Sequence record: OP688485
Strand: one strand, 5' to 3'
Source of the DNA: Escherichia phage EP_H11
Length of the DNA stretch: 64,000 bases
A program made the position numbers and the translations under genes. How positions within the stretch are numbered: the first letter of the stretch is position 1; each line of letters opens with the position of its first letter. Below are positions 561 through 23,422 of this stretch, piece by piece. A model generated the notes under the pieces. It saw only the letters and a list, made by a program, of their open reading frames with translations, made no database searches and was not told the origin of the DNA.

Positions 561-897
561 GAAGACTACCGGTAACAAAATTAACCTGGACATGTTTCAT
601 CTGATGTATGCTAAGCAACTGGGTATGGAACCTGCTGCTTACGCTGCTAAGGTTAATTCCGACCAGGAGTTCCGCCACCAGGTAGAGACTGCGTTCTCTG
701 GGTATGCGGTAGCGGTAAATGCTCTACGTCTGCAGATCATCGGTGGGTCTAAACTCTCTATTGAAGAGATCGCTCCTGGTGTGGCTAAGATCCGTTTGGG
801 AGTAGGTGAATGGGAGTTAGACAATACTCCTAAGAATACCGAAGTAGCTCTGGATGATTTCCTGATCTCCAGCAACTTCCTGACTGCCGCCGTTTAA
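553..897 (+). CDS. hypothetical protein
   Basis: 114 aa ORF, ATGA overlap with upstream gene, followed by intrinsic terminator. Confidence 0.5.
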   Translation: MTKKTTGNKINLDMFHLMYAKQLGMEPAAYAAKVNSDQEFRHQVETAFSGYAVAVNALRLQIIGGSKLSIEEIAPGVAKIRLGVGEWELDNTPKNTEVALDDFLISSNFLTAAV

Positions 898-918
898 GAC
901 CGTCCAAAGGCTGTTAAC
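886..918 (+). promoter_or_regulatory. conserved early-block motif copy G (CCGCCGTTT...AAAGGCTGTTAAC), fused to terminator hairpin
   Basis: shares CCGCNNTTT and AAAGGCTGTTAA cores with six other copies. Confidence 0.45.
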
Positions 919-954
919 TTGGGGACACCCTAGGTTAACAGCCTATTTTTATTT
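908..954 (+). terminator. intrinsic terminator after 553..897
   Basis: AGGCTGTTAAC ... GTTAACAGCCT inverted repeat followed by ATTTTTATTT. Confidence 0.7.
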
Positions 955-1020
955 ACTCGTTAAGGTACGATATGAAGTTTACCACCTAGCAAACTTTTAT
1001 TCAGGAAAAATAAAACGTTT

Positions 1021-1116
1021 TATTTTTCAAATAAACGATTTTTGAACCGTCCTAAAGCCCGTTCTTGTGGGCGGGGCGCTCACGGCGCTTCCGGTTCATC
1101 AAATCGTCTAATTTGG
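1021..1116 (+). repeat. ~90-bp intergenic repeat element, copy 1
   Basis: TATTTTTCAAATAAACGA..TGAAC...TAAAGCCCGTTCTT.TGGG.GGGGCG...CTTCCGG...TCTAATTTGG shared with 4519-4620. Confidence 0.6.
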
Positions 1117-1125
1117 GATAAAACT

Positions 1126-1410
1126 ATGAAAATCGCTCAACTGCTTGCCGCTCTGGCAAATGACACTCTGGTAACTGACTACATGGGTGTTCAAGTAAAC
1201 TACAACTCTAACTGGGTAAGTTCGGTCGGTGAAAAGATCATCGGCTTCAAGGCTTACACTGGTCCTCAGGAATTCCCAGAAGAAAGTCACTTCGCTTCCG
1301 ATGGCTTCAATACGGTCGAGATGCTCGACCCAGGTACCGGTGCGGTGGTGGCTAAGTGTGAGGATGGTCTGTTCGAAGCGATCTTCGAAGAAGTAGACGT
1401 CCAGTTCTGA
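1126..1410 (+). CDS. hypothetical protein
   Basis: ORF track start 1042 trimmed to internal ATG 1126 because 1021-1116 is a repeated element that is non-coding in its second copy. Confidence 0.45.
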   Translation: MKIAQLLAALANDTLVTDYMGVQVNYNSNWVSSVGEKIIGFKAYTGPQEFPEESHFASDGFNTVEMLDPGTGAVVAKCEDGLFEAIFEEVDVQF

Positions 1411-1419
1411 TTTCAATCT

Positions 1420-1437
1420 GGAGGACTTCGGTCCTCC
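1420..1437 (+). other. stem-loop with UUCG tetraloop (GGAGGAC-TTCG-GTCCTCC)
   Basis: 7-bp perfect stem; downstream run only moderately T-rich. Confidence 0.5.
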
Positions 1438-1469
1438 TAATTCTTCCCCTTTATAATTTGGAGCTAATT

Positions 1470-1844
1470 ATGACTAACCAAGAATTCATTCAAAAGTTCG
1501 ACGCTAAAACTGCTTTCGAGAACATGCTGGCAGAAGTAGAATCAATGATCAATATGTCCGGTTTGGTGGCTACTCCAGAAGTCCGCGAAGTACGTGGTCA
1601 AGTTTACGTGAGCGGCTCTACCGAGGACGTTATGTGCCAGATGAACATCCCAATGTTCAAATCCATGTGGATCCATATCTCCGGAGGCCCTCTGGATGAT
1701 AAAACTGGTGCATGGTTCGAAGTTGGTTACCGCTACGAGCATCACGATGGTGGTTCGAATGGTCACAGTATTGCCCAGTTCGTGGTTGATATGAGTGGTG
1801 AAATCACGGTTCGTCGTCCGACTTTCACTAAAGAAGCAAAATAA
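1470..1844 (+). CDS. hypothetical protein
   Basis: ORF track start 1458 is TTG; in-frame ATG at 1470 with GGAG 7 nt upstream. Confidence 0.5.
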   Translation: MTNQEFIQKFDAKTAFENMLAEVESMINMSGLVATPEVREVRGQVYVSGSTEDVMCQMNIPMFKSMWIHISGGPLDDKTGAWFEVGYRYEHHDGGSNGHSIAQFVVDMSGEITVRRPTFTKEAK

Positions 1845-1854
1845 GGGGATCCTC

Positions 1855-21669: not shown

Positions 21670-21677
21670 CCTATCTT

Positions 21678-21707
21678 AGCGCTCTTTAGGGAGCGCTATT
21701 TTTATTT
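21678..21707 (+). terminator. intrinsic terminator after NADAR gene
   Basis: AGCGCTC-TTTAGG-GAGCGCT followed by ATTTTTATTT. Confidence 0.75.
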
Positions 21708-21723
21708 AACGTTGGGAGTAATT

Positions 21724-21963
21724 ATGGATCAGCCTATCCAAACAGTAATTAACGCAGTTGGGAGCATGCAGATCGTGGGTTATGATACCTATGAGCAAGT
21801 AGCTCAAACAGTTAAACTTGATCCTCGCAAGAAGCGTCGTGGTCATCGTCAGGCAGCTAAGAGTTTGCTGCGTAATGGTGGGCTCTTCAATAACTACTCC
21901 TCACCAGGAACTACATTCTGGTGGGTTGCACAATGGCATCTTAAGAAGGCACGTAATGGTTGA
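21724..21963 (+). CDS. hypothetical protein
   Basis: ATG 21724 with GGGAG RBS. Confidence 0.4.
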   Translation: MDQPIQTVINAVGSMQIVGYDTYEQVAQTVKLDPRKKRRGHRQAAKSLLRNGGLFNNYSSPGTTFWWVAQWHLKKARNG

Positions 21964-22309
21964 AGATACTGGAATTCATGACGGACGCTGGGAAGAGCGA
22001 TATAACTCCGTACGGCAGGAGCTCGACACTACTAAGGCTAATCTGAGTAAGGCAAGAGTAGAGAATGCCGAAAACCGAGCTATGCATCACCGTATTATTC
22101 AGATGGCTATTGATGATGGCTGGACGGGTGATCATAATAGTAATGTTGAGGATGCAGTAAAATTCCTCTCTGGTAGAGAGCGTAAAGTAACTGCTCCTAA
22201 AGTACATTATACAGATCATATCACCGTAGGTAAGCCTTCCCCAGTGTATGATGCTGTTGAAGTAGATACATTATTAACCAGCCTAGGATACATTGTGGAT
22301 AAGGATTAA
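21956..22309 (+). CDS. hypothetical protein
   Basis: ORF 21818..22309 trimmed to internal ATG that abuts upstream stop. Confidence 0.4.
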   Translation: MVEDTGIHDGRWEERYNSVRQELDTTKANLSKARVENAENRAMHHRIIQMAIDDGWTGDHNSNVEDAVKFLSGRERKVTAPKVHYTDHITVGKPSPVYDAVEVDTLLTSLGYIVDKD

Positions 22310-22311
22310 TT

Positions 22312-22346
22312 CCGCCGTTTCTTACCCTCGAAAGGCTGTTAAATTG
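22312..22346 (+). promoter_or_regulatory. conserved early-block motif copy E
   Basis: CCGCCGTTTCTTACCCTCGAAAGGCTGTTAAATTG upstream of exonuclease gene. Confidence 0.5.
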
Positions 22347-22373
22347 TTGCACCTCAACTAATAAGGATAACCG

Positions 22374-23087
22374 ATGTCTACTAAGATGATGCCACACCAT
22401 CTGGCACCGAATAAACTGTTTAACCGATTCCTGTCATATCATGACTCCTATCACTGCGCAATCGACATCGAGACTGAGTATCTCGATTTTAAAGAGCCTG
22501 GGGTAGTTCTGTCTGTAGGTATGGTAACGATCGGTCCAGAGCATTACTCCCACGTTTATTTTACTATTGATCGTGAAGAATCTCTGGCATTGGGTATGAA
22601 GTCCGACCCTAAAGTAGTGGAGTGGCTCAATACCCTCCCGAAACCCGTCCGTGATGCCGCATATGCTAATCCGGTATCTGTTGACGAAGCTCTGGATATC
22701 ATCGAGGATTACGTAGCTAAGGTATTACAGGACACTGGCTGCGAGATGTTGAACTTTATCGGTAACGCACCGGAGTTCGACCAAGGATTCCTGGATTGGT
22801 ACTTTAAGGCCAAAGGGCGTAAGACTCCGTTCCTTCACTGGATGAATCGTGACTTCCGCACTCTGGCTAGTCTGCAGCTAATCTCTTTCGATGAACGCCG
22901 CATGATTAAAGAAGAACTGCGTAGCCAGCACGAATCTATGTCTGACCACCATGCTCTGTTTGATGCTATGCTGGAAGCTAAGACCTGGGTTCGCACCATC
23001 AACCGAGTAAAAGAACTGCAGGATCTGGAGCATGAAGTAAACACCATGATCGCTCTGCAGGGTAATTCTGTTGAGGATGAAGAGTAA
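22374..23087 (+). CDS. DEDDh-type 3-prime to 5-prime exonuclease (DnaQ-like)
   Basis: Exo I motif AIDIETEY and Exo III motif HHALFDAMLEA with appropriate spacing. Confidence 0.7.
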   Translation: MSTKMMPHHLAPNKLFNRFLSYHDSYHCAIDIETEYLDFKEPGVVLSVGMVTIGPEHYSHVYFTIDREESLALGMKSDPKVVEWLNTLPKPVRDAAYANPVSVDEALDIIEDYVAKVLQDTGCEMLNFIGNAPEFDQGFLDWYFKAKGRKTPFLHWMNRDFRTLASLQLISFDERRMIKEELRSQHESMSDHHALFDAMLEAKTWVRTINRVKELQDLEHEVNTMIALQGNSVEDEE

Positions 23088-23400
23088 GCTCTGCCGCGTA
23101 GTTAATATACGTACCAATCCTAATTATGATCTGTATGTTGGGAGAGGTACGTTATTCGGGAATAAGTGGAGCCATAAAGATTTACCTAACGCTATCAATG
23201 TAGGTTCCCGAACATTAGCTATCGCGAAATACCGACTATGGTTCCACCAGCAAGTAAAAGATGGCCATATAAGCATCTCATACCTGCGGACTCTGAAGGG
23301 TAAGACTCTGGGATGCTCCTGCTTACCATTACCATGTCATGCTCAAGTAATAGCTGACTTCGTTAATTCATTACCAGACGAAGACTCCGCTCTTTCGTAG
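23077..23400 (+). CDS. DUF4326-like small protein
   Basis: VVNIR...YDLYVGRG...GNKW...LKGKTLGCSCLPLPCHAQVI pattern as recalled for DUF4326; function unknown. Confidence 0.45.
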   Translation: MKSKLCRVVNIRTNPNYDLYVGRGTLFGNKWSHKDLPNAINVGSRTLAIAKYRLWFHQQVKDGHISISYLRTLKGKTLGCSCLPLPCHAQVIADFVNSLPDEDSALS

Positions 23401-23422
23401 CCTCCAAAGGCTGTTAAACTGT
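23387..23422 (+). promoter_or_regulatory. conserved early-block motif copy F
   Basis: CCGCTCTTTCGTAGCCTCCAAAGGCTGTTAAACTGT. Confidence 0.5.

Follow-up and report, generated by a model that had tools for sequence, protein, structure and literature searches.

A bipartite intergenic element repeated along the non-structural gene arm of Escherichia phage EP_H11: a candidate phage-specific promoter

In phages that possess multisubunit RNA polymerases, a conserved motif upstream of the early operons proved to be the early promoter (PMC7598289). For instance, in phiKZ and AR9 one conserved motif lies upstream of the non-structural operons, and late promoters were not predictable (PMC7598289). Here, we describe an intergenic element that shares this arrangement and that is repeated in a 64-kb stretch of the DNA of Escherichia phage EP_H11. 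This stretch, both strands of which were scanned, is referred to as the window, and all motif findings in the window apply to it. Like the phiKZ and AR9 groups, the phage lineage to which the window belongs encodes homologues of the RNA polymerase subunit beta-prime, with remote similarity to the subunits of the AR9 group. However, the early motifs of phiKZ and AR9 are about 10 nt long, AT-rich and single-box, whereas the element described here is bipartite, with two boxes in about 37 bp, and of mixed composition. Judged from sequence comparison, the element is likely to have promoter function of some kind, and the reading that we favour, a DNA-level phage-specific bipartite promoter, has in our estimation a probability of roughly 55%.

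A two-box element repeated in one gene arm

The core of the element is the 12-mer AAAGGCTGTTAA, which occurs exactly at 906, 6067, 13024, 18219, 19616, 22331 and 23406, always on the plus strand. With at most one mismatch, 0.34 occurrences are expected by chance and none of 100 shuffles reached eight; the sole extra one-mismatch match (935-946, minus strand) is the right arm of a hairpin formed with copy 1. A 44-column weight matrix built from the seven copies and applied to both strands returned those seven sites only above 10 bits (48-56 bits). Moreover, a repeat finder that was run independently identified the motif as the largest direct-repeat family in window 1-28000. These copies, which we designate class I, consist of the box CCGC(T/C)(C/G)TTT, exactly 10 nt, the core AAAGGCTGTTAA and then NN-TG-(T/G). 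When the first A of the core is taken as index 0, the upstream box is C(-18)GCYSTTT(-11), followed by a 10-nt spacer of free sequence, the core A(0)AAGGCTGTTAA(11), two free bases and T(14)G(15), usually then T. In five copies, the end of TTAA lies 21-31 nt before an ATG. The individual copies are listed in Table 1.

The first 27.6 kb of the window form the tail end of a long non-structural gene arm on the plus strand, and the remainder is the structural arm on the opposite strand. The motif-bearing block is the non-structural arm, replication genes included. Its genes in the window comprise those for PolX, an NAD-dependent ligase, dUTPase, dCTP deaminases, NADAR, an Rv2179c-like exoribonuclease, PinA and Acb1. 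The plus-strand arm is about 94% coding (64 open reading frames (ORFs), 8,679 amino acids, 27.6 kb). Thus, the location of all seven cores in gaps is far from chance.

The first-pass annotation of the window had described a conserved seven-copy motif in a single orientation that is absent from the structural half. Both statements hold: the seven exact cores all lie on the plus strand, and the weight-matrix scan of both strands finds no further site. The restriction to one strand and one arm was observed with the weight matrix in the 64-kb window as well as in the complete genome of the related phage described below. Several details have to be corrected. The spacer, given as 8-13 nt, is always exactly 10 nt between CCGCYSTTT and AAAGG, and copy 1 starts at 887 rather than 886, the seven sites as such being real. 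The copies had all been called intergenic, which is true of the 12-mer cores, as these never lie inside ORFs, but the boxes of copies 1 and 7 overlap upstream coding sequence. The distance of 20-70 nt to a start codon applies to five copies, whereas it is 79 nt for copy 4 and 208 nt for copy 1. In the tail, read as nTGT, the TG is invariant but the third base is T or G, copy 1 having TGG. Moreover, the total of seven overlooks two diverged copies with cores at 1054 and 4552.

The two diverged copies represent a second class with the consensus CGAwTTwT-N10-AAAGCCCGTTCTTkTGG. Both lie on the plus strand in the non-structural arm of the window. Placed in the same register, they match 14-17 of the 24 class I consensus positions, and less than 0.07% of random positions reach 14. 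The skeleton common to both classes, CG-N3-T-N-T-N10-AAAG-N-C-N-GTT-N4-TG, comprises 14 positions and is complete at exactly nine window sites, all of them on the plus strand, the next best score anywhere being 12. Class II keeps T14 and G15, and T9-A10-A11 is replaced by T-C-T (index 9-14 = TCTTTT). The copies are part of a 59-nt repeat (1020-1078 and 4518-4576, 86% identical) that starts with TTATTTTTCAAATAAACGA; this repeat, which contains the class II element, is followed by a GC-rich hairpin and by the context TCTAATTTGG(G/A) ahead of the start codon. The class II copies would explain how the genes that follow the terminators at 944 and 4562 are supplied with transcripts.

Positions 1-15118 of the window match Escherichia phage vB_EcoM_IME392 (MH719082, 116,460 bp, an unclassified myovirus) with about 94% identity in inverted orientation, and IME392 is the sole match to the window among 50,697 phage records. 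A weight-matrix scan of the complete IME392 genome revealed about 25 class I copies. Their orientation is always that of the non-structural arm, which extends over 73.9 kb (from 61.3 kb of the record down to 1 and from 116.4 to 104.8 kb), and the structural arm has none. IME392 and the window together have 32 class I copies, and each of the seven window copies has an orthologue in IME392. The copies fill 23 of the 48 intergenic gaps of at least 20 nt in the IME392 arm, these 48 gaps making up 8.7% of the arm. After masking of the motif, the recurrent words in the gaps were terminator T-runs, the ribosome-binding context TTAGGAG and the class II element. IME392 has four copies of the latter, one of which (19161) precedes beta-prime-N in the polymerase gene cluster. 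The divergent region of about 195 bp between the arms contains copy 61184, 31 nt before the first ATG of the arm, and copies 59555 and 59497 form a tandem 58 nt apart. There is no GenBank annotation under any IME392 copy, and a blastn search with the motif consensus found it in no other deposited phage.

Table 1. Positions of the element in the window and of the split beta-prime genes in three related phages.
Feature	Genome	Position	Strand	Description
Class I copy 1	Window	887-922	+	Box CCGCCGTTT (887-895); 10-nt spacer with the stop codon of ORF 553-897; core AAAGGCTGTTAA (906-917), then CT-TGG; next ATG 1126
Class I copy 2	Window	6048-6083	+	Followed by the NAD-dependent DNA ligase gene, with the ATG (6110) 31 nt downstream
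Class I copy 3	Window	13005-13040	+	Begins 3 nt past the stop of ORF 12373-13002; ATG 13057
Class I copy 4	Window	18200-18235	+	Adjoins the stop of ORF 17966-18199; 79-nt leader with hairpins to ATG 18310
Class I copy 5	Window	19597-19632	+	Box ACGCTCTTT; ATG at index 40
Class I copy 6	Window	22312-22347	+	Upstream of the Rv2179c-like exoribonuclease gene 22374-23087; position kept in IME392 and L135
Class I copy 7	Window	23387-23422	+	Box overlaps the end of ORF 23071-23400; ATG 23439; position kept in IME392 and L135
Class II copy	Window	1036-1070	+	CGATTTTT-N10-AAAGCCCGTTCTTGTGG; ATG of the next gene at 1126
Class II copy	Window	4534-4568	+	CGAATTAT-N10-AAAGCCCGTTCTTTTGG; spacer and core form hairpin 4542-4562
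Split beta-prime genes	IME392	16457-18025, 19904-21418		By homology
Split beta-prime genes	Ab1-TPeters	22684-24207, 62831-64147 (pieces L125/L126)		By homology
Split beta-prime genes	RP13	12001-13554, 16270-17730 (L128)		By homology

Conservation and divergence in related phages

In a conservation profile of 30 distinct class I copies, C-18, C-16, T-12, index 0-10 and G15 are invariant. T-11, A11 (29/30) and T14 (28/30) are nearly invariant, and C-19, G-17, T-15, T-13 and T16 are strongly preferred. The spacer and index 12-13 are free. Conservation stops at index 16, and the following bases are G-rich in both classes. A further, moderately distant relative was found via the exoribonuclease protein in Logan run SRR10902858 (L135; 78% amino-acid and 74% nucleotide identity in the adjacent gene). 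It has three motif copies, two of which correspond in position to window copies 6 and 7. Compared with the window, boxes, core, TGT and the spacing of 10 nt are unchanged, whereas the spacer sequences are entirely different and an indel lies just past index 17. Thus, selection acts on the two boxes and on the distance between them.

More distant relatives were identified with the help of an RNA polymerase gene. The first-pass annotation had pointed to the rest of the genome as a possible source of a phage polymerase or a sigma-like factor, and the complete IME392 genome indeed encodes a split beta-prime homologue just outside the part that corresponds to the window. Its two halves, beta-prime-N and beta-prime-C, cover Rpb1 domains 1-2 and domains 3-5 and are encoded just upstream of the equivalent of the window (Table 1). 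With beta-prime-N of IME392 as the probe, the closest phages are the Acinetobacter phage Ab1-TPeters (38% identity) and the Ralstonia phage RP13 (35%). Further relatives of beta-prime-N occur in Vibrio and Rhizobium phages, in YerA41 and Carin-5 and, remotely, in the AR9/PBS1 group.

Ab1-TPeters shares the two-arm genome layout, and its version of the element reads AAA(A/C)(G/C)CTGTT(T)AA(A/G)nTG and has two kinds of upstream box, AAACTCAAAATTGA and CCTGTyTCTTAA. The commonest repeated words of this genome, AAAAGCTGTTTAA and AAACCTGTTAAG, are found on the non-structural strand. The strict core pattern occurs 11 times on this (plus) strand and never on the other, with about three matches expected for both together. 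As in IME392, copies lie upstream of ligase, DNA polymerase and topoisomerase genes, and copy 102887 opens the arm, with the divergent structural gene about 70 nt away. In RP13, five co-oriented intergenic copies of the form (A)CGCT(C)TAT-N9-AGACCTTGT occur within a 25-kb piece of the genome, and four of them lack TAnnnT. The occurrence of lineage-specific versions at equivalent places indicates that the element family is old and that it diverges with the phage and not with the host transcription machinery. In viral contigs, the pattern TTT-N10-core gave non-specific single matches only and the specific motif pattern gave no match; the latter had 13 single chance-level matches in metagenomes. 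A search of viral contigs for relatives by means of the ligase protein found none. The beta-prime-N search gave five AT-rich contigs (32% identity), whose repeated k-mers turned out to be coding sequence.

Competing readings and the candidate polymerase

A phage-specific promoter class, as suggested by the first-pass annotation, is the reading that is best supported by the strand and arm restriction, the copies that open an arm, the conserved positions, the lineage-specific divergence and the lack of canonical sigma-70 sites. We infer promoter function from these features, and the start site and the polymerase proposed below are predictions of the same kind. The element would drive the operons of the non-structural arm, which serve host take-over, nucleotide metabolism and replication. 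Transcription would start at or within a few bases of the invariant G15. In this phage-type register, T14 would be -1 and G15 +1, the core would extend from about -15 to -4 and the box from about -33 to -26, an arrangement that resembles the T-purine starts of the phiKZ late (TATG+1) and AR9 late promoters (PMC7598289). Recognition would need a phage-encoded component beyond host sigma-70, either a polymerase with the split beta-prime, a specificity protein, or both.

Several observations weigh against this reading. First of all, the class I core can be read as a textbook extended -10 element (TG-n-TAAnnT, then G), and the upstream box and AAAGGC constitute an imperfect inverted repeat, which would also fit a structured RNA or a dimeric operator. 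In IME392, the operons with the beta-prime genes would themselves be driven by the motif (copy 24650, class II copy 19161). Since no virion polymerase was found among the large structural proteins, this arrangement favours the host polymerase as the reader of the element, at least initially. A specificity factor was not identified: the proteins encoded around the beta-prime genes gave no match in sequence searches of Pfam, PHROGs and PDB, and an AlphaFold model of the 218-amino-acid protein encoded next to beta-prime-N was unusable (predicted local distance difference test score (pLDDT) 48.6). Moreover, the arm has terminators that are not followed by a motif, and other promoters, antitermination or read-through must therefore exist. 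Finally, no transcriptome (5'-end) data were found in the library searched for the window phage or IME392, and no literature on transcription in IME392, YerA41 or RP13.

The resemblance to an extended -10 element leads to an alternative that we consider unlikely but worth weighing in detail, namely a host sigma-70 extended -10 promoter that is used together with a phage activator or sigma-appropriation factor. In this sigma-type register, the TG would be located at -15/-14, T9-A10-A11-n-n-T14 would be the -10 hexamer (-12 to -7), G15 would begin the discriminator and the start would be at about index 21. AAAGGC (-21 to -16) and CGCTCTTT (-39 to -32) would then be activator or appropriation sites, or contacts of the phage beta-prime zipper. 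The conservation indeed fits the strongest sigma-70 determinants, with T9, A10 (30/30), A11 (29/30) and T14 (28/30) kept and index 12 and 13 free. All seven window copies and 28 of the 30 distinct copies show TG(7,8)-T-T9A10A11nnT14, as a sequence pattern of class I only, and TAAnnTG also occurs in Ab1-TPeters and L135. Moreover, a sigma-70 promoter would solve the time-zero problem, as neither a virion polymerase nor a second set of polymerase genes was found, and beta-prime-N, which is of the bacterial type and has the zinc-binding domain, the clamp helices, the lid and the rudder, could be part of an enzyme that uses sigma. However, the -35 hexamer is absent, and a consensus scan for canonical sigma-70 promoters (TTGACA/TATAAT-like, 16-18 bp apart) called no motif copy; such matches are depleted in window 1-20000 (21 versus 40.6 +/- 7.4 expected from shuffles). 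The earlier statement that there is no TTGACA/TATAAT architecture is therefore right as far as the canonical pair is concerned, but it missed the extended -10-like TGnTAAnnT in the core. Furthermore, 12 contiguous invariant bases and an 8-nt box far exceed what sigma-70 needs. Class II has TCTTTT in place of the hexamer and no A at -11, and four of the five RP13 copies lack TAnnnT, so that the extended -10 pattern does not extend to the whole element family. No MotA, AsiA or sigma family was detected in the Pfam screens, and a start at index 21 would cut the Shine-Dalgarno sequence GGAGG of the first IME392 gene, which occupies index 18-22.

Part of this evidence bears directly on the start site. 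The phage-type register is favoured because class II, in which T14 and G15 are retained, lacks the A required by the sigma-70 -10 hexamer, because the RP13 version does without TAnnnT, because conservation ends at index 16 ahead of G-rich bases in both classes, and because of the position of GGAGG in IME392. These arguments are not decisive, and the two registers may both be in use, at first by the host enzyme and later by an enzyme that the phage has modified. A sigma-54 register (GG-N10-GC) was also considered and rejected, as position 16 is T and not C and a start at index 28 would lie past the Shine-Dalgarno sequences of several genes.

The polymerase genes raise a further possibility. A search with full-length RpoC finds both halves of beta-prime in IME392, Ab1-TPeters and RP13, with one beta-prime-N and one beta-prime-C per genome; GenBank labels one of the halves 'beta'. 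Bacterial beta-prime is the nearest counterpart of beta-prime-N (E = 4e-50 with the E. coli protein), which keeps the zinc-binding cysteines, the lid, the clamp helices, the rudder and the three catalytic aspartates (NMDVDGD). By contrast, searches with full-length RpoB, run with phmmer on the ORF sets and with tblastn on complete genomes, detected no beta subunit in these three phages. When 69 ORFs of the window and about 47 of IME392 were screened against Pfam, no sigma factor, MotA, AsiA or single-subunit polymerase was detected, although remote homologues could be missed, and a sigma-70 probe gave no match. Neither a homologue of the AR9 specificity subunit nor polymerase domains in the large structural proteins were detected. 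Proteins of 218 and 486 amino acids are conserved next to beta-prime in Ab1-TPeters, and the former, the neighbour of beta-prime-N, has two homologues among 5.8 billion proteins. A split beta-prime without a detectable beta or sigma suggests a hybrid enzyme with the host beta subunit. To our knowledge, a hybrid enzyme of phage beta-prime and host beta has not been described. That the motif is the promoter of such a hybrid polymerase, in which the phage split beta-prime replaces the host beta-prime on host beta, alpha and omega, is a speculative version of the promoter reading that we consider rather improbable. In that case, AAAGGCTGTTAA and the box would be recognised by the phage beta-prime, for example through its zipper or clamp region, by a novel partner other than sigma, or by the two together. 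At time zero, weak initiation by the host sigma-70 enzyme might occur at the extended -10-like core of class I, before the hybrid enzyme takes over.

Hypermodified thymidines might help such a hybrid enzyme to tell phage from host DNA. IME392 has genes for a 5-hydroxymethyl-deoxyuridine (5-hmdU) DNA kinase (E = 3e-35) and a large thymidylate-synthase-like protein (record 31858-32931 and another ORF), and for a dCTP deaminase and a dUTPase. The window contains a dUTPase gene and two dCTP-deaminase-like genes at 24040-26048, and genes for a glycosyltransferase and a PP-binding protein elsewhere in the arm. Furthermore, the DNA polymerase of IME392 groups with those of thymidine-hypermodifying phages (PMC12686479). 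Because of the kinase, the nucleotide genes and this grouping, the phage DNA is probably thymidine-hypermodified.

Some copies of the element are associated with hairpins. A terminator-like hairpin on the plus strand (908-954) consists of a 17-pair stem (908-944) and the T-run ATTTTTATTT, and its left arm is the core of copy 1. IME392 copy 14795 has a similar hairpin arrangement, and IME392 copy 28251 lies wholly within a terminator loop. If transcription started near index 15 (about 921 for copy 1), the transcript would lack the left arm and would thus escape the terminator that stops transcripts from upstream. In the window, only copy 1 (908-954) and the class II copy with the hairpin 4542-4562 have the intrinsic-terminator form of a GC-rich hairpin and a T-run; the other seven copies do not. 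Terminator-like hairpins that are not followed by a motif copy were found on the plus strand at 1420-1437, 9565-9584, 14102-14124, 21677-21698 and 24540-24567, with the next gene within 20-35 nt. The hairpin at 21677-21698 contains GCGCTCTTTAGGG, which resembles the upstream box of the motif, and a partial core, GCTGTTAACC, follows position 14124.

It is also conceivable, if somewhat less probable than the use of sigma-70, that the element acts at the level of RNA or elongation on read-through transcripts. It could be a processing or stability site, in which a hairpin GC(n)CUUU/AAAGGC is followed by single-stranded UGUUAA, or an antitermination or pause module with a boxA-like box and an ops-like GGCTGTTAAnnTG. 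Almost all copies can form a stem of 5-7 pairs between the box and AAAGGC, and in two copies of L135 this stem is perfect. As in nut and put sites, some copies are followed or enclosed by terminator hairpins. A TATAAT is located about 130 nt upstream of the first IME392 copy. The phage beta-prime keeps its zinc-binding domain, and it is through this domain of beta-prime that put RNA acts. Moreover, the box CGCTCTTT matches what we take to be the boxA core, CGCUCUUU, at 8/8 positions, and GGCTGTTAAnnTG (GGC...TA.nnTG) resembles GGCGGTAGnnTG, presumably the ops element. However, the element occurs more than 25 times per genome and also in tandem at a distance of 58 nt, which is unlike the usage of nut, put or ops. 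A mutual-information and anti-diagonal scan of the 30 distinct copies detected no covarying helix but a fixed imperfect inverted repeat only. The mean fold z-score is -0.95, with 3/30 copies below -2, and there is no conserved hairpin. The whole window has no match to Rfam families (Rfam 15) at the gathering score and no tRNA. The pairing between box and core is not kept in Ab1-TPeters or RP13, whose cores are conserved. The boxes of these phages also deviate from boxA, which is conserved among host bacteria. Furthermore, the first Ab1-TPeters copy has only about 70 nt upstream, with no promoter-like site there, and Pfam screens found no NusG/KOW or N-like family. Two structural ideas were abandoned on the way: a small hairpin between box and spacer is absent in L135, where the spacers are AT-rich, and the argument for the start site from a 5' hairpin was dropped because folding of the 50 nt that follow the motif (-8.8 kcal/mol) is not stronger than that of random 50-nt windows (-9.2 kcal/mol).

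The inverted repeat could also be explained by an operator for a dimeric phage regulator, with the half-sites GCnCTTT and AAAGGC 10 nt apart, beside unrecognised promoters, so that the element would be regulatory only. The fixed spacing and the free spacer sequence would fit this explanation. So would the class A copies of Ab1-TPeters, which carry a separate palindrome, TCAAAATTGA, upstream of the core. However, conservation is strongest outside the repeat, in the asymmetric CTGTTAA..TG, and a symmetric operator would not need the single orientation that all copies show. The short gaps, which often measure about 60-75 nt from the upstream stop to the next ATG, contain no other promoter-like motif. 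An operator as the sole function of the element is therefore very unlikely. The palindrome of Ab1-TPeters, in full (AC)TCAAAATTGA(GT), was observed just upstream of the core at 17578, 18258, 19511 and 49293 of piece L125 and at 2887 of piece L127. This palindrome looks like the operator of a dimeric regulator, and the copies that carry it may belong to a different temporal class.

With regard to the structural arm, no shared late-promoter motif was seen upstream of its genes. A T4-late-like TATAAATA is located at window 37544-37551 (minus strand), about 40 nt upstream of the gene for an 824-amino-acid beta-helix protein. A near-consensus TTGACA-N18-TAAATT lies at window 58162-58191 (minus strand), after a terminator and upstream of gene 57386-58114. 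The arm also encodes a protein of 1,014 amino acids (window 29601-32645, minus strand) with a full-length match to DUF4815 (E = 7e-130), which is kept in IME392 and Ab1-TPeters. In the non-structural arm, two candidates for proteins directed against the host were noticed: a homologue of the anti-CBASS protein Acb1 (window 54-557, E = 3e-6, just above the Pfam cut-off), which is a counter-defence candidate, and a PinA-like Lon inhibitor (window 8582-8998), whose coordinates were derived from the IME392 annotation 'inhibitor of host Lon protease'.

Comparison with known promoter systems

The motif corresponds to no promoter consensus that has been characterised. As a feature, it falls into a known category, the phage promoter families. 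Should it act as a promoter, its copies mark out the transcription units of a lineage that has hardly been studied and that comprises the window phage, IME392, Ab1-TPeters and RP13. The 37-bp element would then provide a testable handle on the transcription of DNA that is probably thymidine-hypermodified. The context is more surprising than the motif itself, as a catalytic bacterial-type beta-prime in two pieces occurs without a detectable beta or sigma. This raises the possibility of a subunit-swap strategy for the take-over of host transcription, for which the motif would be the natural test substrate. If the element were an ordinary sigma-70 extended -10 promoter with an activator site, its description would be a useful annotation of routine interest.

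Among the systems that depend on the host enzyme, the extended -10 promoters of E. coli share with class I a TG-n-TAnnnT without a -35 hexamer. However, they do not have twelve invariant bases and an invariant upstream box, and class II and the RP13 version do not fit them. The middle promoters of T4 are bipartite like the element described here, with a phage-specific upstream box in place of the -35 hexamer and, in addition, a TAnnnT-like element that is often accompanied by TG. The MotA box TGCTTtA is even loosely similar to the GCTCTTT box. However, the MotA box, which is centred at -30, lies 11-13 bp from the hexamer, whereas the distance here is 19 bp and the invariant AAAGGC is present in addition. 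The nut sites of lambda and the boxA of rrn operons differ from the element in copy number and in the use of tandem copies, their boxB hairpin is absent here, and the box diverges in Ab1-TPeters and RP13.

Promoters of the T7 type are comparable in being near-invariant over more than 20 bp, in having many co-oriented intergenic copies and two classes, and in the G-rich initial transcribed sequence that is proposed here. However, they are contiguous and need a single-subunit polymerase, which Pfam screens detected neither in the window nor in the non-structural ORFs of IME392. In the phiKZ and AR9 groups, a virion polymerase is made from a second set of beta and beta-prime, whereas a single beta-prime set and no detectable beta were found here. 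The early motif of these phages is a block centred near -10, as the core described here would be if transcription starts at G15, yet this core has 12 nt and is accompanied by an upstream box.

The non-virion polymerase of AR9 recognises late promoters with 5'-AACA-N6-T(A/G)+1 on the non-template strand, where AACA occupies -11 to -8 and UUGU is read on the template strand. The element described here likewise has a short invariant TGTT/AACA element, free bases and a T-purine at the proposed start. Moreover, the thymine positions are non-canonical in both cases, with uracil in AR9 and probably hypermodified thymine here. The element differs from the AR9 late promoters in that TGTT is located on the non-template strand and in that it combines a longer conserved block with an upstream box.

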